Origin: a bacterium
GTDB taxonomy: Bacteria > Omnitrophota > Gorgyraeia > Zapsychrales > Zapsychraceae
Length of the DNA: 64,000 bases
Assembly: GCA_030429765.1 (NCBI GenBank)
Contig: JAUIER010000002.1
Span: forward strand, 42,126-106,125
Direction: 5' to 3'
This document shows, one piece after another, positions 7,400 through 60,927 of the stretch. The notes below the pieces were generated by a model. It was not told where the DNA came from. It was given only the letters and a program-made list of their open reading frames with translations, and did no database searches. Each line of letters opens with the position of its first letter. The first letter of the stretch is position 1. A program made the translations under genes and the position numbers.

Positions 7400-7401
7400 A
7401 T

Positions 7402-14729: not shown

Positions 14730-14734
14730 ATCAA

Positions 14735-15820: not shown

Positions 15821-15822
15821 GT

Positions 15823-18641: not shown

Positions 18642-18644
18642 AGT

Positions 18645-20339: not shown

Positions 20340-20373
20340 TTCGTTCGATTATGTTGATGGCGGATAAGATCGA

Positions 20374-35311: not shown

Positions 35312-35438
35312 TTTGACTTCGCCTCTTTTGATTAATTGGTGTTGAATGAAATCGTCAGGATTTGCCCCAAAAATTTCTATATATAGTAATATTTATAACG
35401 GTTTAGAAGAAATGGTACTATATTCGAAATGATTAGGC

Positions 35439-35467
35439 TTGTCAAGAATTTTGTCTTGGCCTATAAT
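35439..35467 (+). promoter_or_regulatory. Sigma-70-type promoter TTGTCA, 17 nt spacer, TATAAT, giving a near-leaderless transcript for the plus-strand membrane cassette
   Basis: TTGTCA at 35439-44 and TATAAT at 35462-67. The ATG at 35479 is only about 5 nt after the predicted TSS and has no RBS. Confidence 0.5.
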
Positions 35468-35478
35468 GAAACCAACTT

Positions 35479-36225
35479 ATGACACGAACCGCACCCCCTC
35501 AAAAGACTGAAAACCACTGCCAATACTATGTTTACGTCGCTGTTGGCGCATTGATTTTTGTCATAAGCTCCATTTTTGTTGTCCATTTTCAAGGCTTGAG
35601 TCCCCTCGACTTTGGACGATACCTGATGCATGCCTCCGACGATACCCATCACAATATCATCTTCTACCGGAAACTCCCACAGATTTCACTGAACGAACTG
35701 ATTTACCTGGGTTGGTTCCTGGGGGCTGCTGTGATTTTCGCAGGCTCGCGTCTATTGGCCGGCGTATCGTCGACTAAGACTCGAAGTTTGTCGATCTACC
35801 GCTCACTCGGATTGAGCTTATTGGGGATATTCCTCGTCATTCTCACTGGACAGCTCAGCGGACTGTCCAAGAAATGGAGCTATTACCTCGACAATTACAC
35901 GGTTAAATCAGAAGCCGAACGACTAAAGCTCACCTCCATCCGTCAGTCGTTGGAGATGGCGGAATTTTGCAAGCAGCTCCTGCCGGGCCCACATAAAGCC
36001 GATTTTGTCACCGATATGGACATGGACCATGGACCGAATATGCTATTGCATCGTAGCCTGGCTTTTCATCTGTATCCCATCGATATCCGTGATGTTCGCC
36101 AGCAGCGATCCGACAGTTGGATCGCGTTCAACAAGGCAAATGCCCGTGCACACATCCCGGAAGGATTCGAGCTGCTGGGCGCCCTGAATGACGAAAATGT
36201 AATAGCCGTCAGGATGAAACCATGA
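35479..36225 (+). CDS. 3-TM membrane protein with conserved C-terminal soluble domain (paralog A of a duplicated module)
   Basis: Paralogous to 38124..38837. Shared motifs include ...F(V/I)(T/S)DMD(M/I)..P(N/Y)ML(L/M)HR..A..LYPIDIR.V.... ATGA overlap with the next gene. Confidence 0.55.
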   Translation: MTRTAPPQKTENHCQYYVYVAVGALIFVISSIFVVHFQGLSPLDFGRYLMHASDDTHHNIIFYRKLPQISLNELIYLGWFLGAAVIFAGSRLLAGVSSTKTRSLSIYRSLGLSLLGIFLVILTGQLSGLSKKWSYYLDNYTVKSEAERLKLTSIRQSLEMAEFCKQLLPGPHKADFVTDMDMDHGPNMLLHRSLAFHLYPIDIRDVRQQRSDSWIAFNKANARAHIPEGFELLGALNDENVIAVRMKP

Positions 36226-37598
36226 CATTTGCAACCGCATGTGCATCTCTGCTATTGCCCATCACGCTTGGTGCCGTGTTGATACGCATCACAACTCGAA
36301 ACGATCCAATCCCCAAGCCATTGGCCGTGGCTTTAGGTTATGGACTTGGGACAGGCATCTTGACCCACTGGATGGTGATCGCCAATTTTACCGGAATGCC
36401 CCTTTCAGCCCCGGTAATAAACATCCCTCTCGGCATTGCGCTCGTCATCGGAATTGTTAGCCTGCTGCGCCAGTCACGCTCGGTCCGCCGGCTTCAACCA
36501 AATCGCGAACCGCCGGATATGATATCCATCGTGTGCGGATTGGTCATCCTCTTTGTCACCCATTTCATCTTATGGCGGGCCCTGAATTTTCCGATCTTCG
36601 CGTGGGACACTTTTTCTACAATGGGCCTCAAAGGCAAATCCATTTACTACGATCAAACCATCCGAAATCTGGCCTTTATCCCAAAGTTTGATTACCCAAT
36701 TCATATTCCGCTCTTAACGGCATGGATATCCTTCTGCATGGGCGAATGGAATAATACACTCAAAATCTTGTTCCCCTTGCCATGTTTCTTCTATCTGGTC
36801 ATTCAATACTACTTCCTGCGGGAATTCGCGGCCCGTCGCTGGGCGTTACTGAGCGTGGTGTTCCTGCTGTCCTGTAATTTCCTCATATACCATGCGACAA
36901 TTACCTATCGGGATATTCATATGATGTACTTTAATTGCTCAACGCTGCTGCTGATTGCATGGTGGTATCGGCGTCAATCCGGCGCGTGGTTGTTGTTATC
37001 TGCCGTCTTTGCCGGGCTGACCTCATTTATCAAGCTCGAAGGTTTTGGCTACATGGTTCTATACAACCTCCTGATGACCGTCTTGATTTGGTACAGGAAT
37101 GCTGAATCGGCCCGGGCCAAAATAATGAAGAATCTTGAATTTGCGCTTATCAGCGGCGGCATATACGCCATCTATCTGATCTATCGCATCTTTCACATCC
37201 TGCCCTATGCGGCCGGTCGCGACGAAGTACATGCCGAACACTTTTACATCAACAAGATTAATCTGGCGACGGGAGCCGAATTGTTGGAACGAATGGGAGT
37301 GGTTTTGATGCGCTACATCGAAAACTTTTTTATGAGCGGCAACTGGAACGTAATTCCGATCCTTTTTGTTTTAAGTCTATGGCAGATTTTTTTCAGCCGA
37401 AACCGCCATGTTGGCGTGGTGATGTTATTGTTTCTGGGATTGTTTTTTGGAATGTACTTTGTCACATTTTCGGCGACACAACATTACGTCTGGGTGGCCA
37501 AACAACATCATGTGCTATCCCGCTCAATATTGCATGTATTTCCCATTTTGGTCACCCTAACCATCCTGTTAAACGCGGATGATCACTCTAAAACCTAA
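36222..37598 (+). CDS. Polytopic (about 11-13 TM) membrane protein, GT-C-like glycosyltransferase candidate (paralog A)
   Basis: Paralogous to 38842..40239: ALGYG(L/M)GTGILT, a W-D/aromatic-rich loop F(A/T)WD(T/A)(F/Y)S..G(L/F)K(G/A)K, YH(A/S)TI(T/S)YRDI, and FF(M/S)SGNW(N/S)VI. Family assignment is an inference. Confidence 0.55.
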   Translation: MTFATACASLLLPITLGAVLIRITTRNDPIPKPLAVALGYGLGTGILTHWMVIANFTGMPLSAPVINIPLGIALVIGIVSLLRQSRSVRRLQPNREPPDMISIVCGLVILFVTHFILWRALNFPIFAWDTFSTMGLKGKSIYYDQTIRNLAFIPKFDYPIHIPLLTAWISFCMGEWNNTLKILFPLPCFFYLVIQYYFLREFAARRWALLSVVFLLSCNFLIYHATITYRDIHMMYFNCSTLLLIAWWYRRQSGAWLLLSAVFAGLTSFIKLEGFGYMVLYNLLMTVLIWYRNAESARAKIMKNLEFALISGGIYAIYLIYRIFHILPYAAGRDEVHAEHFYINKINLATGAELLERMGVVLMRYIENFFMSGNWNVIPILFVLSLWQIFFSRNRHVGVVMLLFLGLFFGMYFVTFSATQHYVWVAKQHHVLSRSILHVFPILVTLTILLNADDHSKT

Positions 37599-37651: not shown

Positions 37652-38119
37652 ATGCGTATTGAAGAAAAATTATTTCAGGCCCTGAAAGAATCGTCCAAGA
37701 CATTGGCCCTGGCGGAATCATGCACGGGAGGATTGATCGGTCATCGGATCACCAACTTGCCGGGAAGCTCCGATTTTTTTATGGGATCAGCCGTCTGCTA
37801 TTCAAATGAGGCCAAAACACGATTGATCGGCGTACCCGAGGCCACACTAAAAAAACACGGCGCCGTCAGCACAGAAGTGGCGATCGCCATGGCCAAAGGC
37901 GCCCGAAAAAAATTTCGCGCAGATTTTGCTTTGGGGATTACGGGCATTGCGGGACCCGCTGGCGGGACGGTCAAAAAACCGGTAGGACTTGTCTACATCG
38001 CCGCCGCCTCTCACAATGAATGTATCTGCCTTCAATATGAATTCACAGGCGATCGAACATCAATCAAAAAGCAAGCCAGTACGAAGGCGCTGCATTTGTT
38101 GACGGAATTTATATATTAA
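37652..38119 (+). CDS. pncC: CinA C-terminal domain protein / nicotinamide-nucleotide amidohydrolase PncC-like
   Basis: LALAESCTGGLI...GITGIAGPAGG... is the CinA signature. Confidence 0.85.
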   Translation: MRIEEKLFQALKESSKTLALAESCTGGLIGHRITNLPGSSDFFMGSAVCYSNEAKTRLIGVPEATLKKHGAVSTEVAIAMAKGARKKFRADFALGITGIAGPAGGTVKKPVGLVYIAAASHNECICLQYEFTGDRTSIKKQASTKALHLLTEFIY

Positions 38120-38123
38120 AACC

Positions 38124-38837
38124 ATGAATAGCGCACGCAATATCACTATCTTCTGCATTCTGTCTGTCGTGATCGGCATGGTGATTGCGCCCTATATCAT
38201 GCCGACCGGTGATATCAAAAACCCCCTCCTCTTATTCGGCGAATTCGCGCGTAACGGTTATTACTTTAATCATAATTATGTGAATCCCGCCGTCGTTCAC
38301 AAAGTCAGCTTCCAGAAATACCTGTACTTCCTGTTTTTTATCGGAGTGATATTGTTTCTTTGCCTCAATATTATCCTGCGCCGTCGAGTCTTTAACGCCT
38401 ACCGTACTATGCTCCATCTCGGCATTATCCTGTTTATCCTAACCAGTATGGTTCAAATTTTTAATTTCTATGCATATTATTTGAGTGAACGCGATGCCTT
38501 TTATGGTCGATCCCTTCTTGAAAGCAATCTTGAGATCAACCGTACACCGCATAAACGTCTGACATTCGAATACAGCCTATTCTGTCATCAACACATTAAA
38601 GGTCCAGCCCGGGCGAAGTTCATCTCTGATATGGATATCAACCGGGATCCTTACATGTTAATGCACCGGATGATGGCCTATTACCTGTATCCGATTGATA
38701 TCCGACATGTTCATCCCGGTGAACCGGAATATCTTCTGTTTTTCTTAAAAAAAGACCCGGAGCAAGCTGTGCCCGCTGACTATGAAATCATTGCCCGGCA
38801 AGGCACAAACTTTTTAATCGCCCGGAAAAAGCAATAA
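38124..38837 (+). CDS. 3-TM membrane protein, paralog B of 35479..36225
   Basis: Same architecture and shared C-terminal motifs (KFISDMDINRDPYMLMHRMMAYYLYPIDIRHV). Confidence 0.55.
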   Translation: MNSARNITIFCILSVVIGMVIAPYIMPTGDIKNPLLLFGEFARNGYYFNHNYVNPAVVHKVSFQKYLYFLFFIGVILFLCLNIILRRRVFNAYRTMLHLGIILFILTSMVQIFNFYAYYLSERDAFYGRSLLESNLEINRTPHKRLTFEYSLFCHQHIKGPARAKFISDMDINRDPYMLMHRMMAYYLYPIDIRHVHPGEPEYLLFFLKKDPEQAVPADYEIIARQGTNFLIARKKQ

Positions 38838-38841
38838 ATCT

Positions 38842-40239
38842 ATGTCATTTGTAACCTTCACATTAACCGCCGTCATTTTTCCGACAATAATCGGATACAT
38901 CCTCATCCGTCGATTACTGCCATCCATCACCCTGCCAACGGGAGTATGGATCGCCCTGGGATACGGTATGGGGACTGGCATATTGACACAATTGATGCTG
39001 CTTCTGGCTATTGGTAAAGTACCGCTAACCCTGGCCCCAATCGCCATCGGAATGTTGAGCATCGGACTTTTGGCGCTCATCAAGCGAAACAGCAGCTCCG
39101 AACGGATTCAACTCAATCCCAGATTGCCGGACCCCGATCAAAAGATCGATCTGATCTCCGTGTTTTGCAAAAGTTACATTATATTGTGCGTCCTCTACGT
39201 CATCTTTCGTGCGATTCACATCCCCCTCTACACGTGGGATGCCTATTCATGTAATGGTTTCAAGGCCAAGGCCCTTTATTTCGAACAATCCCTGAGCCTG
39301 CTGCATAACATGCCGCATTATGAATACCCGCTGCATGTGCCGTTCCTTCAGGTATGGGCGTCGATTTCGGCCAACATGTGGCATGACCAGTGGATCAAAA
39401 TCTTCTTTCCGCTTTACACACTCGCGCTGATCACGGTCCTGCATTTCACGTTGCGTCTGCACGTATCCAAGCAATGGGCCCTGTTTGGGCTCGCTGTGAT
39501 CTTGTCATCCAATCTGTATGTGTACCATTCCACAATTTCCTATCGGGATATCACATTGGCCTACTACGTCAATACCTCCATCGCCATGCTGCTGCTCTGG
39601 ATGAAGTCGCGGCAAAATTCGTTGCTCCTGACAGCTGGAATTTTTACAGGATTTGCGACGTTCGTCAAGCTTGACGCGGCAGGCTATTTGCTTGTCCTTA
39701 TGTCGATGATGTTTTTCCTCGTTGTCTTTGACCGATCGATGAAACTTCCGGCGAAAGTCCGCCATTTCTTTCTCTTTACCCTGCCGGCCGTGCTGATTTG
39801 TCTGGTGTATAACATCTACAAAATCCTGGTCATCGAGCCGCGTATTCCGGCTGTTGAGGGCGAAAAAATGAGCTTCGATCTTTTTAGTGTGAAGATCAAA
39901 CTGGGATTAGATACCTTGGTGAAACTGCAGACCGTACTGGGACGGATTTTTGAAAATCTCTTCTTCAGCGGTAACTGGAGCGTTATCTGGCTGCTGTTTG
40001 CCATCAGCCTGATACATTTGCGTTCCATCAAAGTCACCGCGGAAATTCGTATACTCCTCTATGCCATCGTCGCGTTTATGGGAATCCAAATCCTCGGATA
40101 CACGCTCACGCAGTATTATTTCTGGATCGCGCAGACCAACACGAGCCTCTCGCGTCACCTGCTGCACTATTTTCCCATTGTTGTTTCTCTAATGGTTTTG
40201 ATTAATGGAGGGGAATTAGTTGATCAGTCGGACGACTAA
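38842..40239 (+). CDS. Polytopic membrane protein, GT-C-like candidate, paralog B of 36222..37598
   Basis: 465 aa, collinear similarity to paralog A across the whole length. Confidence 0.55.
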   Translation: MSFVTFTLTAVIFPTIIGYILIRRLLPSITLPTGVWIALGYGMGTGILTQLMLLLAIGKVPLTLAPIAIGMLSIGLLALIKRNSSSERIQLNPRLPDPDQKIDLISVFCKSYIILCVLYVIFRAIHIPLYTWDAYSCNGFKAKALYFEQSLSLLHNMPHYEYPLHVPFLQVWASISANMWHDQWIKIFFPLYTLALITVLHFTLRLHVSKQWALFGLAVILSSNLYVYHSTISYRDITLAYYVNTSIAMLLLWMKSRQNSLLLTAGIFTGFATFVKLDAAGYLLVLMSMMFFLVVFDRSMKLPAKVRHFFLFTLPAVLICLVYNIYKILVIEPRIPAVEGEKMSFDLFSVKIKLGLDTLVKLQTVLGRIFENLFFSGNWSVIWLLFAISLIHLRSIKVTAEIRILLYAIVAFMGIQILGYTLTQYYFWIAQTNTSLSRHLLHYFPIVVSLMVLINGGELVDQSDD

Positions 40240-41111
40240 CCCTTGGTCAGATATAAATTGATATATCGCTCACCTGAACACATGCTGATCATTTCCGCAT
40301 GGCTCATCCGTGTTACTTCTCTTTTATGATCATTGATGACTGAAATCTCAAATCCATATGATTCCAACTGGGCAAGAAATTGTTCGGCGGTATATTCATA
40401 GCTTTGGTAGACACAGGGGAAAAACTCGCAGAAGGCGATCAGTTTGGACTGACGCGCGATTAAGGTCTCCATCCCCTTCAGCGCCAGAGGTTCGGCGCCC
40501 TGAATATCAATTTTAATCACATCAATGCGAAGATCATCCGGCAGCAGGTCATCGAGTTTGACGGCCTTCACCGAAACAGATTTACGATTGTCTCCGGAAT
40601 CAAAGATCCGATGATCACCGCGGTTCTCTTCGCAGAAATAAAGTTTTAACTCACCGGGCTGATCGGACACGGCATTCTGAAACAATTTAACGTTCGCGCA
40701 TTGATTCGCTTCCACATTCTTCGTAAGCAGCCGGAAATTTTCTGGATCGGGCTCAAACGCGAATACCTGCCCGCCCGCGCCGACCTTCTTGGAAATCTGC
40801 AGGGTGTGATAACCAATATTCGCCCCGATATCCAGCACATTCATGTCAGGCTGTATCGTGGAGTTCATCAGTGAAGTCTCATAGTCTTCTAAGGTCGAAT
40901 ATTTCCACAAAAACATCGCGGCAATACGGTCGAGCGTGTTGCCATACATCTTCATACCTTTGACATTGATACAACGGTCGGACTTCTGCTTAAAAAACTT
41001 GGCCAGTCCACGCAGTATCGGTTTGAACCAGTGCAGCTGGGATAGGACATAAAGGCCTCTTAAAATACTGTAGGCGATTGATTTGATGATGTAGGACGGA
41101 GAAATTTTCAT
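40236..41111 (-). CDS. FkbM-family SAM-dependent methyltransferase
   Basis: VLDIGANIGYHTL...VFAFEPDPENF...IDVIKIDIQGAE is the Methyltransf_21/FkbM pattern. Tail-to-tail 4-nt overlap with the plus-strand cassette. Confidence 0.8.
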   Translation of the reverse strand: MKISPSYIIKSIAYSILRGLYVLSQLHWFKPILRGLAKFFKQKSDRCINVKGMKMYGNTLDRIAAMFLWKYSTLEDYETSLMNSTIQPDMNVLDIGANIGYHTLQISKKVGAGGQVFAFEPDPENFRLLTKNVEANQCANVKLFQNAVSDQPGELKLYFCEENRGDHRIFDSGDNRKSVSVKAVKLDDLLPDDLRIDVIKIDIQGAEPLALKGMETLIARQSKLIAFCEFFPCVYQSYEYTAEQFLAQLESYGFEISVINDHKREVTRMSHAEMISMCSGERYINLYLTKG

Positions 41112-41133
41112 GAGCGGAAATATCCTCTATCGG

Positions 41134-41859
41134 TTATTTCTCCGCCTTGACATAAAGTGATCCGGCTATTTCTTTGAGGATGGGAATTTTTTCGACGGTT
41201 CGGCCCAGCCCATTGACGAAACCGATCAGACTCTTGGGTGTTCCCGGATGCAGGAAGTCAAACAGCTGGATATGAACATTCTTAAAACCAAATGATTCGA
41301 TCTGGGCCTTGAGCTTCCAGCGGATAAACGCGATTTCATCCGGCGAGACATGCATCTTTTTCTGGAGATAGGGTATGCGCCGTTCAAGAAAAATCTGCGG
41401 ATTCATCAGGTTCGGCTCGGTGAAGTACATCGATCCGCCCGGCTTAAGCACCCGGTAACATTCCTTGAGGGCCTGATCGACCTCCAGGTGATGAAGAACT
41501 GAACTTCCAACCACCGAGTCAAAAGATTCGTCCTCATAGGTTAAATCATACGCATTCTCAACTTTGAATGTTACATTCTCCGCCGGAACACGGACTTTGG
41601 CCACATCGAGCAGTTCAGGTGAAATGTCATTGGCAATGATCGTCGCGCCGCTTTGCGCCAAATACTCCGTAAAGTATCCTACACCACAGCCCAATTCCAG
41701 GACATTCATATCTTCAGTAATATGTGATGTCAGCATCTTGACCCGGCGTTGCCAACGGATTTGTCCGGCCGGCGTCTCCCAGTACCAAAATGTACCCGAC
41801 CATGACTCGCGCAGATGCTTGCCATGTTCTATTTCATTTTTTATACGCTGGTCGGACAT
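41134..41859 (-). CDS. Class I SAM-dependent methyltransferase
   Basis: VLELGCGVGYFT (motif I)...LKPGGSMYF. Confidence 0.8.
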   Translation of the reverse strand: MSDQRIKNEIEHGKHLRESWSGTFWYWETPAGQIRWQRRVKMLTSHITEDMNVLELGCGVGYFTEYLAQSGATIIANDISPELLDVAKVRVPAENVTFKVENAYDLTYEDESFDSVVGSSVLHHLEVDQALKECYRVLKPGGSMYFTEPNLMNPQIFLERRIPYLQKKMHVSPDEIAFIRWKLKAQIESFGFKNVHIQLFDFLHPGTPKSLIGFVNGLGRTVEKIPILKEIAGSLYVKAEK

Positions 41860-41867
41860 TGAACGTA

Positions 41868-43301
41868 TTAGTCCTCACGTTTTTTATAGAATTCTTTACG
41901 AGGTACAAGGATCAGCTCGCGGAAACCGCGGAAACAGGCCGTCAGCAAATGAATCCCGTGCTGCAGCGATCGCATTTTAGACTCACCGGAAACTCGGGAT
42001 TTGTAATGCACCGGAACTTCCATGATCTTGCTCCCCATCTTGGCCGCCCCGAACAACAGATCAAAATCACCCCATTTGTCCTTGCCCCATTTCATCCGCT
42101 TGAAATCACGCTTATAAAGCGCCTTGGTCCCGCAGAGCGTGTCCGTCAAATTTTGTTGAGTAATGAAGCTCATAAGCCAACCGAAAATCTTGTTCCCGAA
42201 TAAATTGGTCATACGCATCGCCTGATCTTCCATCGGATACACCAGCCGGGTCCCATTGACAAACTGACACAGCCCCTTATTAAGAGGATCAAAAAAGCGC
42301 GGTAATTCTTCCGGCGGCGTGGAGATATCCGCATCCAGGATCATGATCACCTCTTCCTCGGCGGCATCAAATCCAGCCTTAACCGCCTGCCCCTTACCAC
42401 GATTCGGACTGTAATCGATCAGTTTAAGATTAGGAAATTCCCCCTGCAGCGACCTGACCTTATCAGCCGTTCCATCCGAACTTCCGTCATTGACAACCAC
42501 GATCTCTGTTCGCTTGCCCATCGACGGCACCCGTCGAATCGCGTCTTCGATATTTCCCTCTTCGTTGTAGCACGGAATGATGACCGAACAGCCGTAGCCC
42601 AGATCGACCTCGTTCTTGGGTTCCGGTTGGATGGTGAGATATTGCGTGGAGGATAACTTGCTGAACGGCCACAAACGCACACCGACGGAATTCGCCAGGT
42701 ACGATAGGAGTGGAATATTCTTGGGGAACAGCAATAGGTGACCATAGTAACTGACATCAAAATCCATCAGTCCCAGCATTTTGACCAGACTTTTTCGCTC
42801 GATGAAGTTATGCGGGCCTTCCGGCATCTTGGCCTTGATCTTTTCCATAAACATCAGGACCGGATCCCACCACGGATTAATCGTCGTCAGAAAAATTTTG
42901 GTCGTCGGTTTGCAGAATCGATAGGCACTGCGGAAAATATCCTGAACATCATAAACATGGTCGACGACGTCAACCATGATGATATAATCAAACTTTTCGT
43001 CGATATCCAGATCCTCGGCCGGTGAGTGAATGAATTCATATTGAGGAAATTTCTCCCGGGCCAGTTTGACCATCTCCCCACTGATATCGACACCAACCCC
43101 CCGCGAAGGCTCCATATACGCCAGGATTTCTCCGGTTCCGCAACCGAACTCCAGCACCGAACTCCCCTTGGGAATCATACGTGACATAAACGCCTTGAGC
43201 GTGTTGTAATAGTAGGCGTTCTTCTTTTTCCAATGATCGTAATTGGGAGCGATCTTATCAAAATGCTCCCGGACTTCATCCTTGGTCATGATTGGACACA
43301 T
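41868..43301 (-). CDS. Fusion protein: N-terminal class I SAM methyltransferase + C-terminal GT2 polyprenyl-phosphate sugar synthase (Dpm1/ArnC/GtrB-like)
   Basis: N-terminus has VLEFGCGTGEIL. C-terminus has SVIIPCYNEEGNI...VVNDGSSDGT...ILDADISTPPEEL (DxD), typical of the GT2 Dpm1 family. The ATG at 43301 is preceded by GGAA. Confidence 0.85.
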   Translation of the reverse strand: MCPIMTKDEVREHFDKIAPNYDHWKKKNAYYYNTLKAFMSRMIPKGSSVLEFGCGTGEILAYMEPSRGVGVDISGEMVKLAREKFPQYEFIHSPAEDLDIDEKFDYIIMVDVVDHVYDVQDIFRSAYRFCKPTTKIFLTTINPWWDPVLMFMEKIKAKMPEGPHNFIERKSLVKMLGLMDFDVSYYGHLLLFPKNIPLLSYLANSVGVRLWPFSKLSSTQYLTIQPEPKNEVDLGYGCSVIIPCYNEEGNIEDAIRRVPSMGKRTEIVVVNDGSSDGTADKVRSLQGEFPNLKLIDYSPNRGKGQAVKAGFDAAEEEVIMILDADISTPPEELPRFFDPLNKGLCQFVNGTRLVYPMEDQAMRMTNLFGNKIFGWLMSFITQQNLTDTLCGTKALYKRDFKRMKWGKDKWGDFDLLFGAAKMGSKIMEVPVHYKSRVSGESKMRSLQHGIHLLTACFRGFRELILVPRKEFYKKRED

Positions 43302-43307
43302 AAGCCG

Positions 43308-44099
43308 TTATTTCCTGTCTCTGAGTTTTGCGAGTAAGCGCAATATTTCGATATACAGCCAAACCAGGGTCACCAAGAGTCCAAATGCGCCATACCATTC
43401 TAGATACTTTGGCGCTCCGTTCTGCGCCCCTTGTTCGATAAAGTCAAAATCCAAGACCAAATTCAGTGCGGCGATGGTCACGACGACCAGACTGAAACCG
43501 ATCCCAATCGGGCTGCTGCCCCATCGCATATCATAGAACAGATTCACATTGAACAAACTCGCCACGAATGTCACGACATAGAACAGACAAATGGCTCCGG
43601 TCGCGGCAAATACGCCTGCCCGAAACTTTTGCGTAGCCCGCACCAACCCGGATTTATATGCCAGCAGCAGCGCGAATAAAGTCCCAAAGGTCAATCCAAC
43701 CGCCTGGAAAACGATGCCGGGATACTGCATCTCAAAAAAGGCCGAGATCCCTCCGATCGCCAAACCTTCAAGCAAGGCATAAACAGGCCCGGTGACCGGC
43801 GCCCATTCCTTTTTAAAGGCCGTCACGATCGCCACAATAAAACCGCCAATCAGGCCGACCATCATAAATGTCATCACTGACTGAGGGGTGCCGACCGGTT
43901 CAGACGAAAAACCTTCCATCAACGGTGACACTTCCGTCATGAGCTTCCCCCACACCCATGAAGCCGTCATCATCAGTAGACCCAGAAGGACGAATGTCTT
44001 GTTGACCGTTCCCTGAATTGTCATCGGTTCACCGGATGACATGTTATAGTTCGACGTCTCAAACGCCGTTTGAGTCATCACTGGATTGGATGTTCGCAT
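43308..44099 (-). CDS. 7-TM membrane protein, possibly Bax-inhibitor-1/YccA-like
   Basis: 263 aa, about 7 predicted TM helices, and a C-terminal amphipathic charged tail. Family call is weak. Confidence 0.4.
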   Translation of the reverse strand: MRTSNPVMTQTAFETSNYNMSSGEPMTIQGTVNKTFVLLGLLMMTASWVWGKLMTEVSPLMEGFSSEPVGTPQSVMTFMMVGLIGGFIVAIVTAFKKEWAPVTGPVYALLEGLAIGGISAFFEMQYPGIVFQAVGLTFGTLFALLLAYKSGLVRATQKFRAGVFAATGAICLFYVVTFVASLFNVNLFYDMRWGSSPIGIGFSLVVVTIAALNLVLDFDFIEQGAQNGAPKYLEWYGAFGLLVTLVWLYIEILRLLAKLRDRK

Positions 44100-44108
44100 A
44101 TTACCCTC

Positions 44109-44564
44109 CTAAAAAACCACCGCCCACCGGATGGCGATGTGCATAATGATATTCGTATAAATCCCGGCCACCACATCGTCGGTCATAATTCCCAGACCGC
44201 CTTCAAATTCTTCAAATTTATTCACCGGGTAGAGCTTGAACATATCAAACGCCCGGAACAAAAAAAAGGCCGTGATGTATACGGTGAGATCGAGCGGCAA
44301 TAAAAACAACGCCAGCATAATCCCTGAAACTTCATCAATCACGACACATCCCGGATCCTTCTTATCGAGCAAATCTTCCATCGGACCGCTAACCAGCAAT
44401 CCCAATACCGTCACGGCAATTAGAACAAGTATATACGCAAAAGGCATATCTGCCAATAGGATGCATAACAAAGCCCCGGCAAAACTGGCCAGAGACCCCG
44501 GTGCGACCGGGAAATTGCCTATGTAAAATACCGTTGAGGTGATTCGTACAAAACCGTCAGACAC
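44109..44564 (-). CDS. pgpA: Phosphatidylglycerophosphatase A
   Basis: FYIGNFPVAPGSLASFAG...VVIDEVSG...GGLGIMTDDVVAG are the PgpA motifs. Confidence 0.88.
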   Translation of the reverse strand: MSDGFVRITSTVFYIGNFPVAPGSLASFAGALLCILLADMPFAYILVLIAVTVLGLLVSGPMEDLLDKKDPGCVVIDEVSGIMLALFLLPLDLTVYITAFFLFRAFDMFKLYPVNKFEEFEGGLGIMTDDVVAGIYTNIIMHIAIRWAVVF

Positions 44565-45141
44565 CGATAACCCTTCTATTGTTGAGGAAATAGGACACTC
44601 CCGATACCAGCGTCAGCGTAACCGCCACCAGGATCAGGTACTCGATGATCTCCATCCAGTAGTGCACCGATAATTCACTCCAATTTTTAAAACCGGTTGT
44701 TTCCGAGAAAACAACATAGATCAGAATCACACCCGCCGCGATCACCTGTGAGGCCGTCTTGTACTTCCCAAGCTTTTCCGCCGCAAGGACTTTCCCCTTT
44801 GATTTAGCATTGATCCGCATAATCGTGATAAAAACCTCACGCCCAAAAATGACCAAAAACGCCAGTACGGTCACCAGCCCCATCTTCACAAAGATCAAAA
44901 AGGCCGACAACATCAGGAATTTGTCCGCGATCGGATCCATTAACTTCCCGAAATCGGAGATCATATTGTGCTTCTTGGCAATGTAACCGTCATAAAAATC
45001 CGTAAACGAGGCGATAAAAAATATGATGGCTCCCATGAGCTTGGGGAAGAAACCCTCACCCGAGATAAACATAATAAACAGAACCGTCAGGACAATTCGG
45101 GAAATTGTCAACGTATTCGGTGATATCATTACGTAGGCCAT
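44557..45141 (-). CDS. pgsA: CDP-diacylglycerol--glycerol-3-phosphate 3-phosphatidyltransferase
   Basis: CDP-alcohol phosphatidyltransferase motif DFYDGYIAKK...G...DPIADK. Confidence 0.88.
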   Translation of the reverse strand: MAYVMISPNTLTISRIVLTVLFIMFISGEGFFPKLMGAIIFFIASFTDFYDGYIAKKHNMISDFGKLMDPIADKFLMLSAFLIFVKMGLVTVLAFLVIFGREVFITIMRINAKSKGKVLAAEKLGKYKTASQVIAAGVILIYVVFSETTGFKNWSELSVHYWMEIIEYLILVAVTLTLVSGVSYFLNNRRVIGV

Positions 45142-46448
45142 ATGGCGTCTCCTGTCAAATCGTATTCATAGGAATCAAGTATTTTTACGTCCACAAAATC
45201 TCCGGGTTGAAGCTTTTGCGCGCTGTGAACATAAACCACTCCATCCACATCCGGCGCGTCGTATTCGCTGCGCCCGATGTACATATCTTCTTCATTTGCC
45301 TGCGGCTCGTCGATCAGCACCTTGAGCGTACGGCCGACATAGCCTTGCTGTATCTCTTCCGAGATCTCCTGCTGCAGATTCATTAATTCATCCCGCCGCT
45401 GTTTTTTAATCTTGTCGGGAACATGATTCGGCATAGAGTAGGCTGGCGTCTGTTCCTCTTTAGAGTAAACAAACGTCCCCATCTTCTCAAAACGGGTATC
45501 ACGGACAAAATCTTTGAGCTCCTGAAAATCCTGATCTGTTTCACCTGGCAACCCAACTATAAATGTGGTTCGCAGACTTCCCGTGGGCATACTGGCTTTA
45601 AACTTGTTCATCAGATCAATCGTTCCCTGACGCGTAATGTTGCGGTTCATCGACTCCAGCAAGTGATCACTGATGTGCTGAAGCGGCACATCAATATATT
45701 TGCAAATTTTAGGTTCCGTGGCCATCACCTCAATCAGCTCATCGGTGACATGCGCCGGAAAGGCATAGAGCAACCGAATCCATTGGATATTCTGCGTCAC
45801 CGCGACGATCTTTTTGAGAAGTTTCGCGAGGCTCAATTCACGGTACAAATCCATCCCGTACGCCGTGATATCCTGTCCGATCAGATTGATCTCGACGACA
45901 CCCTGCGCATCCAGCCGCTGAACTTCTTCCAGAATCGATTCAAACGTGCGCGAGACAAACTTACCCTTGAGCTTCGGGATAATACAAAAGCTGCATTTAT
46001 TGTAGCAGCTCTCGCTGATCTTAACGTACGCAAAATGCTTGGGTGTGAGCGAGACATCCGACGGGATATCATCCCGATTTAGCTTCTGCGCGCCGATAAT
46101 CGCGTCGATATCTTTAAACTCCTCAGCCAATTCCTTGTGATAGCGCTGTGCCAGACATCCGGCGACTATCACTTTTTTAAGTTTCCCCTGTCGCTTGAGT
46201 TCCAACAGATCGATGATCGTATCAATCGACTCCTGTTTGGCTTCGTCTATGAAAGAACACGTGTTTACAATCGCGACCTCAGAATGCTCCAGATCCACTA
46301 TCCGGTGTCCATTACGCTTGAGATTGCTCAACAGCGTCTGGGAATCCACCAGATTTCGGGCGCAGCCCAAGTTGACGAGTCCCACCTTCTGCCCCTGTTT
46401 CAGCCGTTCGCTATGAAAATCATCCGTTGTCTTTGCTGGGTGAATCAT
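45129..46448 (-). CDS. rimO: Ribosomal protein S12 methylthiotransferase RimO (MiaB-like radical SAM)
   Basis: MTTase N-terminal domain (VGLVNLGCARN), radical-SAM CxxxCxxC (CYNKCSFC) and a TRAM C-terminus. Confidence 0.85.
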   Translation of the reverse strand: MIHPAKTTDDFHSERLKQGQKVGLVNLGCARNLVDSQTLLSNLKRNGHRIVDLEHSEVAIVNTCSFIDEAKQESIDTIIDLLELKRQGKLKKVIVAGCLAQRYHKELAEEFKDIDAIIGAQKLNRDDIPSDVSLTPKHFAYVKISESCYNKCSFCIIPKLKGKFVSRTFESILEEVQRLDAQGVVEINLIGQDITAYGMDLYRELSLAKLLKKIVAVTQNIQWIRLLYAFPAHVTDELIEVMATEPKICKYIDVPLQHISDHLLESMNRNITRQGTIDLMNKFKASMPTGSLRTTFIVGLPGETDQDFQELKDFVRDTRFEKMGTFVYSKEEQTPAYSMPNHVPDKIKKQRRDELMNLQQEISEEIQQGYVGRTLKVLIDEPQANEEDMYIGRSEYDAPDVDGVVYVHSAQKLQPGDFVDVKILDSYEYDLTGDAIWPT

Positions 46449-47536
46449 TTTGTTACCGACAATCCATCTTTCGTAATCGTCACACTCTTAGCCTTACGAT
46501 TCTTGCGACCTAATGTTCCAATCAAATTTCCGTTGAGTTCAAATTCCAAATGAATAATGTTCTTGCCTGTTATCTCGATTTGATCATTCGCCCGCCATGT
46601 CTCGACGACCCCCTTATTCAGCGTGGACTGAAAGACGGTTCTGTCATCGGCTTTCACTCTTAACCAGCTCTTTTTGAGCGCCCGGACCGTTAAATTAATT
46701 TCTTTTGAGACCGGTTGTGAAACCACCGGTATTGGTTCAATTGGTTGAGACGGTGTGGGCGCCGGAGCCTGGGCGACCGGTTGGGCCACGGGCGCCGGAT
46801 TGGTGGCCGGGGTTGTCACGGCCGCCACTGGAGCTGCTGCCGGCGGCGTTGGAGCTGGTGCCGGCGTTGGCTTAGGGCGATTGGCTTCAGCCTTTTTTTC
46901 CTTTTTCTTCGCCTCGGCGGCTGCAGCCGCTTTCTTTTTCTGCTCAGCCTTCTTGGCCGCCTCTGCTTTTTTATCGACCTTCTTGACAACCTGCCCCTTG
47001 TCCTTCTTCGGCCGGTTATGAAAATAGTGATTGAGAAATACGATTGTCTTGAAAAGAATAAACAAACCCAAGATCCCGCCGGCAATCGTGATCAGCTGAC
47101 GTTTACGCTGATGCGTAAAATACTTTTTCATGGTCTGCTTAACACGGAATTCAAAATCAGAATCCACATCCGTGGTCTTAACTTCCGCCGCCGGCTTTTC
47201 TTCCTTGAATTCCTGAAGCACATCCGAAATATCAACATTCAGATACGTCGAATAAATCTTCAAAAACCCTTTGATGTAAAAGGGAGACAGCGTGCGGATC
47301 GTATAACCTTCCTCAATTGCTCTGAGCGCGTCCATCGGAATCTTGGTGGATTCATGAACAGCCTCAAGCGATAAGCCTTTCTCCAATCGCGCTTCTTTGA
47401 GGATCTCACCGCTGCGCCGCGGAGGCGTCCGGCTTTCTTCCAGCATCCGCTTGGCATGTTCAACGACGGAATCTTCTTTGTGCGTTTCTTCGACTTGGTC
47501 GAGTGTTTCTTCAGGGCTGTCTGACTTAGGACTCAT
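46445..47536 (-). CDS. rodZ: Cytoskeleton protein RodZ-like (HTH + TM + Pro/Ala-rich linker + C-terminal beta domain)
   Basis: XRE-type HTH (GEILKEARLEKGLSLEAVHESTKIP), a single TM, a PAPAPTPPAAAP-rich linker, and a DUF4115-like C-terminus. The ATG at 47536 is preceded by GGTGA; the track start is a GTG. Confidence 0.75.
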   Translation of the reverse strand: MSPKSDSPEETLDQVEETHKEDSVVEHAKRMLEESRTPPRRSGEILKEARLEKGLSLEAVHESTKIPMDALRAIEEGYTIRTLSPFYIKGFLKIYSTYLNVDISDVLQEFKEEKPAAEVKTTDVDSDFEFRVKQTMKKYFTHQRKRQLITIAGGILGLFILFKTIVFLNHYFHNRPKKDKGQVVKKVDKKAEAAKKAEQKKKAAAAAEAKKKEKKAEANRPKPTPAPAPTPPAAAPVAAVTTPATNPAPVAQPVAQAPAPTPSQPIEPIPVVSQPVSKEINLTVRALKKSWLRVKADDRTVFQSTLNKGVVETWRANDQIEITGKNIIHLEFELNGNLIGTLGRKNRKAKSVTITKDGLSVTK

Positions 47537-49874
47537 TTTCTTCACCTTGCATGTTTTCAAGTAACCATTGTTCACGATCGACTAATATATCTCGGGGCTT
47601 GCTGCCCACGTATGGCCCCACAATTCCCTCGGCCTCCATCATATCGATGAGCCGAGCCGCCCGCGTGTAACCTAATCGCATGCGACGCTGCAAGATTGAT
47701 ACCGAGGCCTGATTGCTCTCGACGACCAACTGGACGGCTTCATCATAGTACTCATCTTTTTCCTTGGCCCCGCCCCGCGCGCCGGCCTTATGACTGTTAA
47801 CAATCGTGTCATCATAGATCGGGGCCTGCTGATCTTTGATGAACTGAATGACCTTAGCAATTTCATCATCCTTAACGAAATTTCCCTGGCCTCGGGTCGG
47901 CTTGGCATCGCCCGGCTTCATAAAGAGCATATCACCCTTTCCAAGGAGCCCTTCCGCTCCATTCGTATCCAGGACGGTCCGTGAATCGACCTTCGATGCG
48001 ACCTTAAATGAAATACGCGCCGGAAAGTTGGCCTTGATCACTCCGGTAATAACATTGACCGACGGACGCTGTGTCGCCAGGATCAAATGAATGCCTACCG
48101 CGCGTGACAGCTGGGCCAATCGGGTAATCGATCCTTCGACGCCTTTGGCCGCGACCTGCATTAAATCCGCCAACTCATCGATAATCACCACGATATAAAA
48201 CATATTATGCCCTTTTTCATTATAGGACTTGATGTTTCTCGCGCCAACTTTGGAAAGTTTTTTGTAACGGGACTCCATCTCGCTGACTACCCAGTTGAGT
48301 ACGGCCGACGCTTTTTTGGGATCGGTCACCGTCGGAGCCAAAAGATGCGGAATATCATTGTATTGCGCCAGCTCGACCATTTTGGGATCGATCATAACAA
48401 ACCGGACCTCATCCGGCGACGCGTTCAACAGGATCGACATGATGATGCCATTCACACACACTGTCTTTCCCGATCCGGTGGTTCCCGCGATTAGCAAATG
48501 CGGCATGTCCGCCAGGTCAGCCACCATCGGTTTACCGGCAATGTCTTTACCCAAGGCGATGGTGAGCTTGGACTTGGAGTTTCTGAATTCACTACTGGCC
48601 AGGACATCCTTGAGAAATACCGAGGCCGATGATCCATTAGGAACCTCAATTCCGACTCGACTCTTTCCCGGGATGGGAGCGACAATTCGAACCGTCGGCG
48701 CCTTCATTGCGAGCGCGATATCATTCGATAAAGTGGTGAACTTTTGAACCTTGACCCCCGGCCCCGGCTCCAATTCATAACGGGTGATCGCCGGTCCGCG
48801 CTCAATATCCACCACGCGCGCGCCCACGCCAAAACTGGCCAGCGTCTCTTCCAAACGCTTGGCGTCGTTCATGAGATGGTTTTGAATCTTGTTGGTCGAT
48901 ACCTTTGGAGGGTCCTGAAGCAGGTCTAGACTGGGGATGGTGAACTCTCCCACGATCTGAGGCTCACTCTCATATTCCTCTGCCGGAGATTTTCCCTGAG
49001 CGATGCGAATCTGCGGCTTCTTGGGCTTGATCTCTTCTTCCTCCTCTTCGTCCTCGTATTCCTCATCCTCTTCGTCTTCCTCGTACTCCTCATCCTCTTC
49101 GTCTTCGTATTCTTCGTCGTCCTCTTCCTCGTCCTCGTCGTATTCCTCTTCGTCCTCGTACTCTTCGTCGTCTTCTTCCTCTTCGTCGTACTCTTCCTCG
49201 TCTTCCTCTTCCTCCTCAATTACGGCCTTGGGCTTCCGTTTCACCCCAGCCGCCTTCGTGGCCACAGATTTGACAGCTGATGACGGCTTAAAGGCCGCGA
49301 TGCTCAGATCACCATTCTTGAAACTCGCGATAAAGGATTCAACGATGCCGTTAATTTTGTTGAAAATACTGAGGAAAAACGGTGTGACGAGGATTTCGCC
49401 GGTAAGAATGAGTGCAAGCGCTCCCAAGGCTGACAGCACGATGTAGGATCCGACTGTACCCAGATAGTGATTGAGAAAGTCCGAGATCAGAATCCCCACC
49501 AGTCCCGCGCGCTGAAAACGTTCGGTCGACTCCTGCGGACCGGACATGCTGATCAGGGCACTGATAACGGCGAATAGGACTACGAAACTGAAAAGTTTAG
49601 TGAAGGTGAATTCGATCTCACGGGCGGTAAACTTATTCCAGCTCCAGAACAACAGAAAAACAACCAACGCGTACGCGGAATATCCGCAGATAAAAAAAAT
49701 GGATCCCGCCAGATAGGCCCCGCTGATCCGTATTAAATTCTCGGCCGGTTGATTGGGAGTGGATGTGTACCAGGATAGATCTTGAGGTGTGAATGAAATG
49801 AGACTGGCGAAGAGAATCATCCCCAGAGCCAGGACAACTATAGCCTTGATTTCATTGATGTGCTCTTCATTCAT
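47526..49874 (-). CDS. ftsK: DNA translocase FtsK
   Basis: 4 N-terminal TM helices, a linker, a motor with Walker A GTTGSGKT, and a gamma domain (winged helix) at the C-terminus. Confidence 0.92.
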   Translation of the reverse strand: MNEEHINEIKAIVVLALGMILFASLISFTPQDLSWYTSTPNQPAENLIRISGAYLAGSIFFICGYSAYALVVFLLFWSWNKFTAREIEFTFTKLFSFVVLFAVISALISMSGPQESTERFQRAGLVGILISDFLNHYLGTVGSYIVLSALGALALILTGEILVTPFFLSIFNKINGIVESFIASFKNGDLSIAAFKPSSAVKSVATKAAGVKRKPKAVIEEEEEDEEEYDEEEEDDEEYEDEEEYDEDEEEDDEEYEDEEDEEYEEDEEDEEYEDEEEEEEIKPKKPQIRIAQGKSPAEEYESEPQIVGEFTIPSLDLLQDPPKVSTNKIQNHLMNDAKRLEETLASFGVGARVVDIERGPAITRYELEPGPGVKVQKFTTLSNDIALAMKAPTVRIVAPIPGKSRVGIEVPNGSSASVFLKDVLASSEFRNSKSKLTIALGKDIAGKPMVADLADMPHLLIAGTTGSGKTVCVNGIIMSILLNASPDEVRFVMIDPKMVELAQYNDIPHLLAPTVTDPKKASAVLNWVVSEMESRYKKLSKVGARNIKSYNEKGHNMFYIVVIIDELADLMQVAAKGVEGSITRLAQLSRAVGIHLILATQRPSVNVITGVIKANFPARISFKVASKVDSRTVLDTNGAEGLLGKGDMLFMKPGDAKPTRGQGNFVKDDEIAKVIQFIKDQQAPIYDDTIVNSHKAGARGGAKEKDEYYDEAVQLVVESNQASVSILQRRMRLGYTRAARLIDMMEAEGIVGPYVGSKPRDILVDREQWLLENMQGEENES
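49016..49232 (-). repeat. Low-complexity coding repeat: about 70-aa Asp/Glu/Tyr-only tract in the FtsK linker
   Basis: EEEEDEEEYDEEEEDDEEYEDEEEYDEDEEEDDEEYEDEEDEEYEEDEEDEEYEDEEEEEE. The DNA is a GAA/GAG/GAC/TAC microsatellite-like repeat. Confidence 0.8.
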
Positions 49875-56157: not shown

Positions 56158-56330
56158 ACGCAATCTCTGGCAAAACCAGTTAGGTTAAACACCCTATAAT
56201 TATACCCAAAAAGTTCGGTACACACTAGAATTATTTTGGAATCCCTGAGGTTGAGATTTTCACATATTTCCGGTCAATATCTAAGTATAACACAAGTAGG
56301 GAAGAAATCCGAACCCTGAGGGCCCAAGGA

Positions 56331-59204: not shown

Positions 59205-60575
59205 TTAGAATGCAACGTTCATGTTAACCAATACTTGTTTGGCTGATGAATCGTTTTCGCTTTCCCAGATACTTCCTGGTAAAAACCATCCAACGCTAGC
59301 ACCGATTTGTACATCTTCAGTGTAGTCATAAGACAGGTCAAAGTTAAACTCTTTCCCGATGTGTCCACTGTTGTTGTTTGTTGCCAATGACAGTGTTGTT
59401 CCATCTGGCTGTCGGATTGACTTTGATCCGAATTTTGTGTTTCTTTCATTCCACAGGCTAGTGATTCCAAGACGTGCAGTTACGTCTTCCATCGGCTCAG
59501 CCATTAGGTAAAGCGAGTGGATTTCCATGTTTGTTAGATCAAACAATGAATTGTAGATATGTCCACCACCTTGTGCTTCGAAGAATGGATCCCATCCAGT
59601 CCAGTCAGTTTGAGATGTAGAGTTATCCTCTTCACCTGTAACCTTGGTGAAGATGTACTGAGCCACTGGCTTGTACTCTTCTAGAGCTGGGATTTGGTAG
59701 TTTACGATACCCTGGAAGGCCCAAGCGCTTCTTTTTCGATTGGCGTTCGTTGTAGACGAAAGTCTCTTACGTCCACCTTGGTGAGCCATTTCGAACTGAA
59801 TGTTCAGGTTTTCCAATGGGTTAGTGCTGGCGCGAACCCCTGTTACCTTGATGTAGTCAGTTTGCGCTCCAGTTACGTTATCGTTGTCTTCTTTGTTGCG
59901 TGATTTATAGAAGTACGCTTCCACAACTGAGTCCATATCGTCACCCAATTGGTAGTTGGCGTTAACCCCCCATAGATCGATGTCATCATCTAGGTCAGAC
60001 AATGAAACCGTGTTTTGGTCGATCTTTGAGTAGAATACTTCTACAGTTAGCGGATTGTAATCGAAGATCGCTCGGATCGCATCAATTGCAGTCTGCTTCG
60101 TTAGATCTTGAGCGATTCCATTGATACCTGAGTCACCCGGTGCCAAGTTGTTGGCTCCAGTTGCGTCAAATACCAATCCGTTTCCGTATGAAAACGTCTG
60201 GCGCCCCACAACTAGTGTAAGTGGAGAGTACAGCATTTCCTTTAGTGTTACATAGGCCAAGTGAAGATCAACGTCAGACGATGATGTCGTGTTGTCGGCA
60301 TTCCATCCTCTTTCAGTGATCAGCGCGATCGTTACGAATACTTGGTCTGTAAGGTCAGCATCAACTTGAAGACCTGTCTGGTTGATGAACAGGCTTTGCT
60401 CATCTTGAACGCGGTTAGGCGCGATACCAGCTTTTGAACCCAAGTTGAAATTGTTGCGGTAAATATAAGTGTTGTCAGTCCATCCACTTATCTTTACGTT
60501 TTGAACGCTAGCAAATGCCGGTACCGCTGATAGAGCGACAGCCGCAGCAGCTGCTAATACGAATAATTTTCTCAT
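59205..60575 (-). CDS. Outer-membrane beta-barrel porin (signal peptide, C-terminal aromatic Phe)
   Basis: ATG at 60575 with a GGAGGAG RBS. Signal peptide MRKLFVLAAAAAVALSAVPAFA. Alternating amphipathic beta-strands ending ...VLVNMNVAF. Confidence 0.7.
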   Translation of the reverse strand: MRKLFVLAAAAAVALSAVPAFASVQNVKISGWTDNTYIYRNNFNLGSKAGIAPNRVQDEQSLFINQTGLQVDADLTDQVFVTIALITERGWNADNTTSSSDVDLHLAYVTLKEMLYSPLTLVVGRQTFSYGNGLVFDATGANNLAPGDSGINGIAQDLTKQTAIDAIRAIFDYNPLTVEVFYSKIDQNTVSLSDLDDDIDLWGVNANYQLGDDMDSVVEAYFYKSRNKEDNDNVTGAQTDYIKVTGVRASTNPLENLNIQFEMAHQGGRKRLSSTTNANRKRSAWAFQGIVNYQIPALEEYKPVAQYIFTKVTGEEDNSTSQTDWTGWDPFFEAQGGGHIYNSLFDLTNMEIHSLYLMAEPMEDVTARLGITSLWNERNTKFGSKSIRQPDGTTLSLATNNNSGHIGKEFNFDLSYDYTEDVQIGASVGWFLPGSIWESENDSSAKQVLVNMNVAF

Positions 60576-60927
60576 TATTTCTCCTCCAAAAAGGTAAATA
60601 ACTACTTCAGATTTTGATATATTCAACTAGACGATCTAAGGTTATGTCTAGAGATTTACATATTAGGTTGACCAGTTTACTCGACGATTCGACAATAATG
60701 TTTTTTACCATCCCCCCTTTCTTATTCGTATATTTGAATCATCACTGGTATTGCTCTCACGGGCATATACTCGCCGTAAATACAAATAATTGCAATTCTT
60801 AACGTATAGCGATACGCATAGCTCCGCTGAAAACAAATGGTTATTCGTTGTTTTTATCACACGCTAACGGCAGTGTCAACAAAATTTGATTTTATTTTAA
60901 CTTGCAATTTTTTGCGCTACTCTCCCG

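Follow-up and report, generated by a model that had tools for sequence, protein, structure and literature searches.

What would be made by an enzyme in which a class I S-adenosylmethionine (SAM)-dependent methyltransferase is joined to a family 2 glycosyltransferase (GT2), and which enzymes would use its product? The question is raised by a 64,000-nucleotide stretch of an Omnitrophota genome (GenBank assembly GCA_030429765.1, contig JAUIER010000002.1, positions 42,126 to 106,125 of the forward strand; hereafter, the window). Here the gene for such a fusion is followed by two further methyltransferase genes, MT2 and FkbM, and is met by a convergent run of genes that encode two paralogous membrane glycosyltransferases of the GT-C type, B1 and B2, together with two small partner proteins, A1 and A2 (Table 1). 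Members of the Omnitrophota have not been cultured, are often ultra-small, and may be attached to hosts, and we know of no account of their surface chemistry. On balance, we lean toward reading the locus as an extracytoplasmic envelope-glycosylation module that combines a lipid-linked monosaccharide donor with GT-C enzymes and probably delivers a methylated sugar. All open reading frames (ORFs) named in an earlier, first-pass annotation of this DNA are present with identical coordinates in the ORF listing.

Pfam places Methyltransf_23 at residues 29-183 of the fusion (1.6e-19), with Methyltransf_11 at 2e-16, and Glycos_transf_2 at residues 239-399 (8.3e-30); together with NCBIfam, this confirms the two domain families that had been proposed for the protein. 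More than 100 clusters of homologues of the same length, at 50 to 89% identity, exclude a gene-calling artefact as the origin of the fusion, and the closest homologues, with identity of up to 89%, belong to Omnitrophota metagenome-assembled genomes (MAGs). The first-pass annotation had described the joining of a methyltransferase to a Dpm1/ArnC-like enzyme as unusual. This description has to be qualified: such fusions are common, not rare, in Omnitrophota, are found in several other phyla, and have already been given a generic name by NCBI, 'bifunctional class I SAM-dependent methyltransferase/glycosyltransferase family 2 protein'. Outside Omnitrophota, a scan of a genome collection recovered full-length relatives from a deltaproteobacterial MAG, Geobacter, Pelotalea, Geomobilimonas, a Daviesbacteria MAG, a Bacteroidota MAG, and another MAG. 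One Omnitrophota genome encodes tandem paralogs of the fusion (L010:7794-9188 and L010:10001-11398), 40% and 62% identical to that of the window, with a gene for a 264-aa methyltransferase-like protein between them. A literature search for a characterised fusion of a methyltransferase with a polyprenyl-phosphate GT2, or for a methylated polyprenyl-phosphate sugar, found nothing relevant; the one paper that touches on all of these subjects (PMC13390465) deals with unrelated clusters.

The GT2 half is closest, by both sequence and fold, to the dolichyl- and undecaprenyl-phosphate sugar synthases (AglJ, dolichyl-phosphate mannose synthase (DPMS), ArnC, and GtrB). Its best NCBIfam models, all aligned to approximately residues 238-458, were AglJ (1.7e-31), a halobacterial dolichyl-phosphate hexose transferase (1.3e-24), and ArnC (6e-19). 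A phmmer search of PDB sequences ranked ArnC (1e-18), Pyrococcus furiosus DPMS (PfDPMS; 1.5e-17), and GtrB (1.5e-12) at the top, and PfDPMS and ArnC headed the GT2 matches in the fold comparison of the fusion model. The domain has a GT-A fold with a DxD metal-binding motif. In 58 Omnitrophota homologues, residues D272, G273, D276, D323, D325, D387, C390, G391, and T392 are invariant, and E331-E332-L333-P334 is conserved in at least 90%; D323-A-D325 followed by PPEELP parallels DADLQNPPEEIP of ArnC. A grouping with processive synthases, which the first-pass annotation had regarded as fatal to its assignment, was considered and rejected: PgaC and others align over only ~90 N-terminal residues of the GT2 domain (92 for PgaC), and none of them is among the top fold matches.

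No transmembrane (TM) helix was found in the fusion by a hydropathy scan (Kyte-Doolittle, 19-residue window, threshold 1.6), and the protein has no C-terminal anchor of the kind present in GtrB, ArnC, PfDPMS, and AglJ. It should be noted that a PfDPMS variant devoid of its TM domain remains active and membrane-targeted (PMC5526996). A TM-less polyprenyl-phosphate sugar synthase is therefore plausible by analogy, and the missing anchor would be no argument against this activity. The C-terminus of the fusion extends ~30 residues beyond the region aligned with ArnC and ends, in the model, in a long helix (442-464). This helix and another one (364-381) align in the model with the interface regions of ArnC; a hydrophobic-moment scan did not single them out.

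The N-terminal half has a Rossmann-like fold with motif I (GxGxG) and an acidic residue that ends strand 2. Across the same 58 homologues, G53, G57, D72, and D105 are invariant, and C54 and T56 are conserved in at least 90%. Thus, the motifs that had been quoted for the two halves are present and conserved, and the loss of the SAM motifs, which had been named as a finding that would weaken the assignment, is not observed in the window protein or in these homologues. Given the invariant SAM-binding residues, a dead methyltransferase domain was rejected for the lineage of the window; some distant relatives do have one (see below). Catalysis by this half is likely in the lineage, as judged from these residues, and is perhaps not its only function. 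A hydrophobic helical hairpin at approximately residues 190-216 of the domain is conserved as well.

The two methyltransferases reported downstream of the fusion, a second class I enzyme and an FkbM-family enzyme, are recovered by Pfam and by TIGR01444, respectively. MT2 starts 8 bp downstream of the fusion, its orthologues follow the fusion in three related loci (L001-L003), and there are natural proteins in which MT2 is joined to the C-terminus of the methyltransferase-GT2 unit (P0003, 710 aa, and P0103, 714 aa). The FkbM gene also matches PF05050 (1.2e-18, 68.2 bits versus a cut-off of 22.7) and, weakly, RfbT; its orthologues are found within the cluster in L001 and adjoining the fusion in L006. 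Additional class I methyltransferases are encoded in the clusters of L002, L008, and L010, and three B12-radical SAM genes in that of L083. A sequence scan found no TM segments or signal peptides in the fusion, MT2, or FkbM.

The plus-strand run A1-B1-CinA-C-A2-B2 converges on the FkbM gene, and the ends of the B2 and FkbM genes overlap by 4 bp. B1 and B2 share 31% identity along their whole length (E 4e-84). The convergent paralogs had been called GT-C-like, and fold comparison confirms the GT-C fold, with a multi-TM core and periplasmic juxtamembrane helices; ArnT is the best fold match. Pfam PMT_2 matched B2 below threshold (E 0.014; 16 bits versus a cut-off of 26.1) and did not match B1, and among 43 diverse members of the B family, 18 matched PMT_2 at E 0.01 or better (best, 5.6e-8). 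The family is therefore related to the ArnT/PMT_2 group, but divergent from it and unclassified. It is large and lacks a Pfam model: a profile search of 1.84 billion representatives retrieved 5175 proteins at E <= 0.001, of which 409 reached E <= 1e-30. A profile of B run against PDB sequences returned only noise. Residues D133, K276, and R438 are invariant in the 43 diverse members, and the pair W132-D133 in nine closer ones; D133 is the conserved acidic residue of the first large loop, which the positive-inside rule would place in the periplasm.

The A proteins (28% identity between A1 and A2, E 4e-24) consist of three predicted TM helices and a C-terminal domain of ~120 aa with the motif D-x-D...P-x-M-x-x-HR...LYPIDIR. 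They have no match in Pfam (E up to 10), NCBIfam, or PDB sequences, including a PDB profile search, and an A profile run against a collection of 5.8 billion proteins returned only the members of the query itself. In related loci, an A gene lies directly upstream of 9 of the 10 B genes (the exception is in L002), and A and B are naturally joined in one protein, P0244 (720 aa). Acceptor binding, donor delivery, and flipping are conceivable roles for A. The C-terminal domain of A, the N-terminus of B, and the D133 loop of B are all predicted to be periplasmic by the positive-inside rule, a topology that fits the existence of the A-B fusion. The CinA-C gene stands between the two A/B pairs, 4 bp before A2, and has no obvious link to glycosylation; it has the same neighbourhood in L002, L003, L004, and L010.

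To assess linkage, the window proteins were compared by tblastn and blastp with fetched loci, and gene tables were used as well. Among 13 Omnitrophota-type loci, three of which (L005, L006, and L008) are not long enough for the presence of GT-C genes to be assessed, a B-type GT-C gene was found within 10 kb of the fusion in seven: L001 (three A/B pairs), L002, L003 (two pairs), L007, L009, L010, and L082. The fusions in these seven loci are 59-89% identical to that of the window, and the flanking genes otherwise differ. A PMT_2 gene directly follows the fusion in L083 and lies 8 kb away in L081; no GT-C gene was found near the fusion in L004. Outside Omnitrophota, large multi-TM proteins adjoin the fusion gene, with TPR repeats in L017 and PMT_2 matches in L012 and L014. 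These comparisons of gene neighbourhoods indicate that the fusion and the A/B pairs are evolutionarily linked.

Of all the neighbours of the methyltransferase-like-GT2 family, a different gene is conserved most widely. It encodes a short-chain dehydrogenase/reductase (SDR) resembling CDP-tyvelose 2-epimerases, is 49-69% identical across phyla, adjoins the fusion gene in eight loci (L005, L008, L009, L011, L012, L014, L021, and L082), and is fused to the methyltransferase-like-GT2 unit in a Daviesbacteria MAG (L013), giving an 831-aa protein. The best PDB matches of this SDR are 9rl0 (2.9e-41) and 1orr (3.6e-39), both CDP-tyvelose 2-epimerases, including TaTyvE. TaTyvE interconverts CDP-glucose and CDP-mannose (PMC13098431, PMC7851689), and its genomic context is not discussed in the TaTyvE paper. 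The relatedness hints at the donor sugar of the fusion family. The 64-kb window contains no copy of the SDR gene.

The first-pass annotation had proposed a module for a methylated polyprenyl-phosphate hexose, or a methylated glycolipid donor, that is consumed by the convergent paralogs. The type of GT2, the intact SAM motifs, the GT-C identity of the paralogs, and the linkage bear this reading out; the methylated product itself is a prediction. We propose the following scheme. The first step would take place on the cytoplasmic side of the membrane, where the GT2 half would load a single sugar, taken from a nucleotide sugar, onto polyprenyl (undecaprenyl) phosphate; mraY and murG are present in the window, and a pool of this carrier is therefore expected. 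The fusion would dock on the membrane probably through amphipathic interface helices and possibly through the hydrophobic hairpin of its methyltransferase domain. The fused methyltransferase, MT2, and FkbM, all predicted to be cytoplasmic, would methylate the sugar, be it while bound to the nucleotide or once linked to the lipid; we place this step before flipping because all three enzymes are devoid of TM segments and signal peptides. The lipid-linked sugar would then be flipped by a transporter, and B1 and B2, each with its partner A1 or A2, would transfer it to one or two periplasmic acceptors, for which lipopolysaccharide (LPS)/lipid A, another glycan, and protein are candidates. A more specific version, namely, that the fusion, MT2, and FkbM make an O-methylated, possibly multiply methylated, hexosyl-phosphoryl-polyprenol that is used by an unclassified two-subunit GT-C (B and A), is put forward tentatively, as a possibility short of an even chance. 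We know of no described methylated lipid-linked monosaccharide donor. Three features of the locus are new: a synthase that has no TM helix and is joined to a probably active methyltransferase, up to two more cytoplasmic methyltransferases, and a two-gene (A and B) transferase present in two copies.

Several observations weigh against this scheme. At the position of the metal-binding Gln in the DADLQ motif, which DPMS and GtrB (PMC5526996) share with ArnC, the fusion family has Ser, Thr, or Val. The bit scores of the GT2 half are far below the equivalog cut-offs (109.7 versus 325 for AglJ, 86 versus 375 for the dolichyl-phosphate hexose transferase, and 68 versus 529 for ArnC), so that the fusion is a relative, not an orthologue, of any characterised named enzyme. 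The similarities of the methyltransferase domains are to class I enzymes of a generic kind only, among them methyltransferases of phospholipids and quinones. The cluster contains no nucleotide-sugar gene, and no flippase of the GtrA, ArnE/F, MATE, or Wzx type was found in a check of the genes of the cluster and of two small membrane ORFs located in other parts of the window. Furthermore, relatives of the Geobacter type, from Bacteroidota, and in L016 keep the fusion at full length and have no Pfam methyltransferase match, no GxGxG, and no equivalent of D72. Because the fusion is retained in lineages without the SAM motifs, the fused domain would therefore have some role that outlasts the loss of SAM binding.

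The last observation is the basis of the alternative that survives best. In this alternative, the pathway is the same, and the N-terminal domain is mainly structural, replacing the TM/tetramerisation domain of GtrB and ArnC, or acts as a SAM sensor, with methylation carried out by MT2 and FkbM only, or on the final glycan. The degenerate relatives (L012, L017, L018, L014, and L016) are what would be expected in this case, and so is a fusion without a TM helix, given that the tetramer assembly of GtrB uses TM helices (PMC5526996). Conversely, the SAM-binding residues are invariant in the window protein and its 58 Omnitrophota homologues, which argues that catalysis is retained in this lineage, and we consider the alternative unlikely for the window.

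The genes upstream of the fusion suggest another possibility. The minus-strand run from the rimO-like gene through FkbM has gaps of <= 22 bp; within it, the fusion is immediately preceded by pgsA, pgpA, and the BaxI_1 gene, with no gap exceeding 9 bp, so that co-transcription of the fusion with them is likely. The first-pass annotation had put a 7-TM protein, pgsA, and pgpA downstream of the fusion along with the two methyltransferases; the latter placement stands, and the former three are actually upstream on the coding strand. Promoter-like sites are not in excess in the sequence (21 versus 17.6 in the shuffled expectation), terminator-like sites show a modest excess (20 versus 11.5 expected), and the only plausible promoter signal is a divergent pair at ~35417-35467. 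Probable co-transcription with pgsA-pgpA could indicate a phospholipid-related role, which likewise weighs against a polyprenyl-phosphate donor. The GT2 half might instead glycosylate a phospholipid-related or soluble phospho-acceptor (for example, a lipid of the phosphatidylglycerol pathway or a phosphoglycerate-type compound) and, with the methyltransferases, give a methylated glycolipid or solute. The position of the fusion in a rimO-pgsA-pgpA operon accords with this alternative. However, the GT2 half clearly resembles DPMS and ArnC more closely, and does so over the whole domain, including the interface-helix regions, and the similarities of the methyltransferases are generic. The adjacency to pgsA-pgpA that had been pointed out is present in the window, and it is conserved among close relatives only: the rimO-pgsA-pgpA-(BaxI)-fusion order is retained in L001-L004 and L010, whereas the pgsA-pgpA linkage is absent in L007, L009, and L082, which retain the GT-C pair, and is also lost in L083. 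Thus, GT-C genes, the products of which need lipid-phosphate sugars, stay adjacent where the pgsA linkage is lost. We therefore downgraded the proposed functional link to pgsA-pgpA to lineage-specific synteny with probable co-transcription, and regard a phospho-acceptor of this kind as quite improbable.

Incidental clustering, with the fusion, MT2, FkbM, and the A/B pairs serving separate pathways, is harder still to credit, even if MT2 and FkbM are missing in many related loci and L004 and L081 carry the fusion without an adjoining A/B pair, because triple methyltransferase-GT2-MT2 fusions exist, the convergent layout of the fusion and the B-A genes recurs in seven loci with otherwise different neighbours, and methylation enzymes, including class I methyltransferases and B12-radical SAM enzymes (L083), recur in the clusters.

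The proposed donor/GT-C module follows the logic of ArnC/ArnT, GtrB/GtrC, CsbB/YfhO, and Ppm1/Pmt, in which a lipid-linked monosaccharide donor is paired with a GT-C enzyme. Resemblance to the Arn system for lipid A aminoarabinose is considerable: undecaprenyl phosphate receives a modified sugar from a GT2 and gives it up in the periplasm through a GT-C, no PDB sequence matches the GT2 half better than ArnC and no fold matches B better than ArnT, and dedicated enzymes modify the sugar before and after loading. The differences are also clear. ArnC has two TM helices and the fusion has none, in addition to its low score with the ArnC equivalog; we propose methylation by a fused enzyme in place of formylation and deformylation; B has a separate three-TM partner; and no ArnE/F-like flippase is encoded among the cluster genes that were checked. 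Among archaeal enzymes, Haloferax volcanii AglJ is the best NCBIfam match of the GT2 half. AglJ and the SAM-dependent methyltransferase AglP are separate proteins of an N-glycosylation pathway that ends in the oligosaccharyltransferase AglB, as opposed to the fusion in the window. AglP methylates a sugar that is still linked to dolichol phosphate, and thus methylation of a lipid-linked sugar has a precedent. In PfDPMS and in eukaryotic DPM1, which serves GT-C enzymes of the PMT/ALG/PIG groups, the motif is DADLQH, compared to DAD-I/M-S/T in the fusion, and to our knowledge, no described DPMS features a methyltransferase fusion.

The three-step scheme itself, with a cytoplasmic polyprenyl-phosphate sugar synthase, a flippase, and a GT-C that acts after export, has been set out for the Gtr, Arn, CsbB/YfhO, and pentofuranose systems (PMC11127046; PMC13390465), and the ORF13 epimerase is a precedent for modification at the lipid-linked stage (PMC11127046). 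GtrA/GtrB/GtrC, CsbB/GtcA/YfhO, GacI/GacK/GacL, and the pentofuranose systems share this logic with the module of the window. They differ from it in that the window cluster has no GtrA- or MATE-type flippase among the genes checked, its synthase is TM-less and fused to a methyltransferase, and its GT-C is unclassified and has an obligatory A partner.

Table 1. Coordinates of the locus in the window and of selected genes in related loci (locus identifier before the colon).
Feature	Coordinates	Strand	Assignment or remark
Methyltransferase-GT2 fusion	41868-43301	minus	477 aa; Pfam domains
Fusion, N-terminal class I SAM methyltransferase domain	42597..43301	minus	~residues 1-235
Fusion, C-terminal GT2 (GT-A) domain	41868..42596	minus	polyprenyl-phosphate sugar synthase type
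MT2, second class I SAM methyltransferase	41134-41859	minus	241 aa; Methyltransf_11 1.1e-27
FkbM-family methyltransferase	40236-41111	minus	291 aa; TIGR01444 114.5 bits vs cut-off 37.7
A1, paralog of A2	35479-36225	plus	248 aa; overlaps B1 start by 4 bp
B1, GT-C, paralog of B2	36222-37598	plus	458 aa; shares invariant residues
A2, partner of B2	38124-38837	plus	237 aa; three predicted TM helices; family unassigned
B2, GT-C fold, PMT_2/ArnT-related	38842-40239	plus	465 aa; fold match
CinA C-terminal (PncC-like) domain gene	37652-38119	plus	PF02464 8.5e-59
BaxI_1 membrane protein, multi-TM	43308-44099	minus	BaxI_1 2e-79
pgpA	44109-44564	minus	PF04608 8e-36
pgsA	44557-45141	minus	TIGR00560 143 bits vs cut-off 109
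rimO-like	45129-46448	minus	ORF listing
Degenerate-domain relatives (Geobacter, Pelotalea, Geomobilimonas, Bacteroidota MAG, another MAG)	L012:9953-11179, L017:10010-11260, L018:9956-11206, L014:5927-7252, L016:9992-11302		pseudo-methyltransferase fused to GT2
SDR	L082:6920-7987, L009:8912-9970, L011:8818-9879, L012:8758-9813, L013:8924-9979 (fused), L014:8896-9954		conserved neighbour

Other features were noted elsewhere in the window. A complete division/cell-wall (dcw) cluster occupies positions 6161-21683 of the minus strand and includes the MraW methylase, a penicillin-binding protein transpeptidase, Mur ligases, MraY, FtsW, MurG, Ddl, an FtsQ-like protein, and FtsA; murG is separated from the next Mur ligase by a Peptidase_MA_2 gene (10477-11250). 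The FtsK homologue (47526-49874) has a linker of ~70 residues composed almost purely of Glu, Asp, and Tyr, and a RodZ-like protein (46445-47575; HTH_25 and RodZ_C) has a long linker rich in Lys, Ala, and Pro. These two ORFs overlap by 50 bp as called, and thus one of the start codons is probably further downstream. Positions 53959-56163 encode a protein of 734 aa that has a pilin-like hydrophobic segment at its N-terminus and no Pfam match; an outer-membrane porin of the Alginate_exp type is encoded nearby (59205-60626; 1e-15).

For Omnitrophota, the module predicts a specific and testable modification of the cell envelope, in which a methylated sugar would be delivered via a lipid carrier. 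Beyond this phylum, cultured Geobacteraceae (Pelotalea chapellei DSM 13688 and Geomobilimonas luticola JCM 17780) carry relatives in which the methyltransferase domain is degenerate and thereby offer an experimental entry point, and the locus presents glycobiology with uncharacterised parts: a TM-less fusion of a polyprenyl-phosphate synthase and a methyltransferase, a large unclassified GT-C family, and its obligatory small partner.

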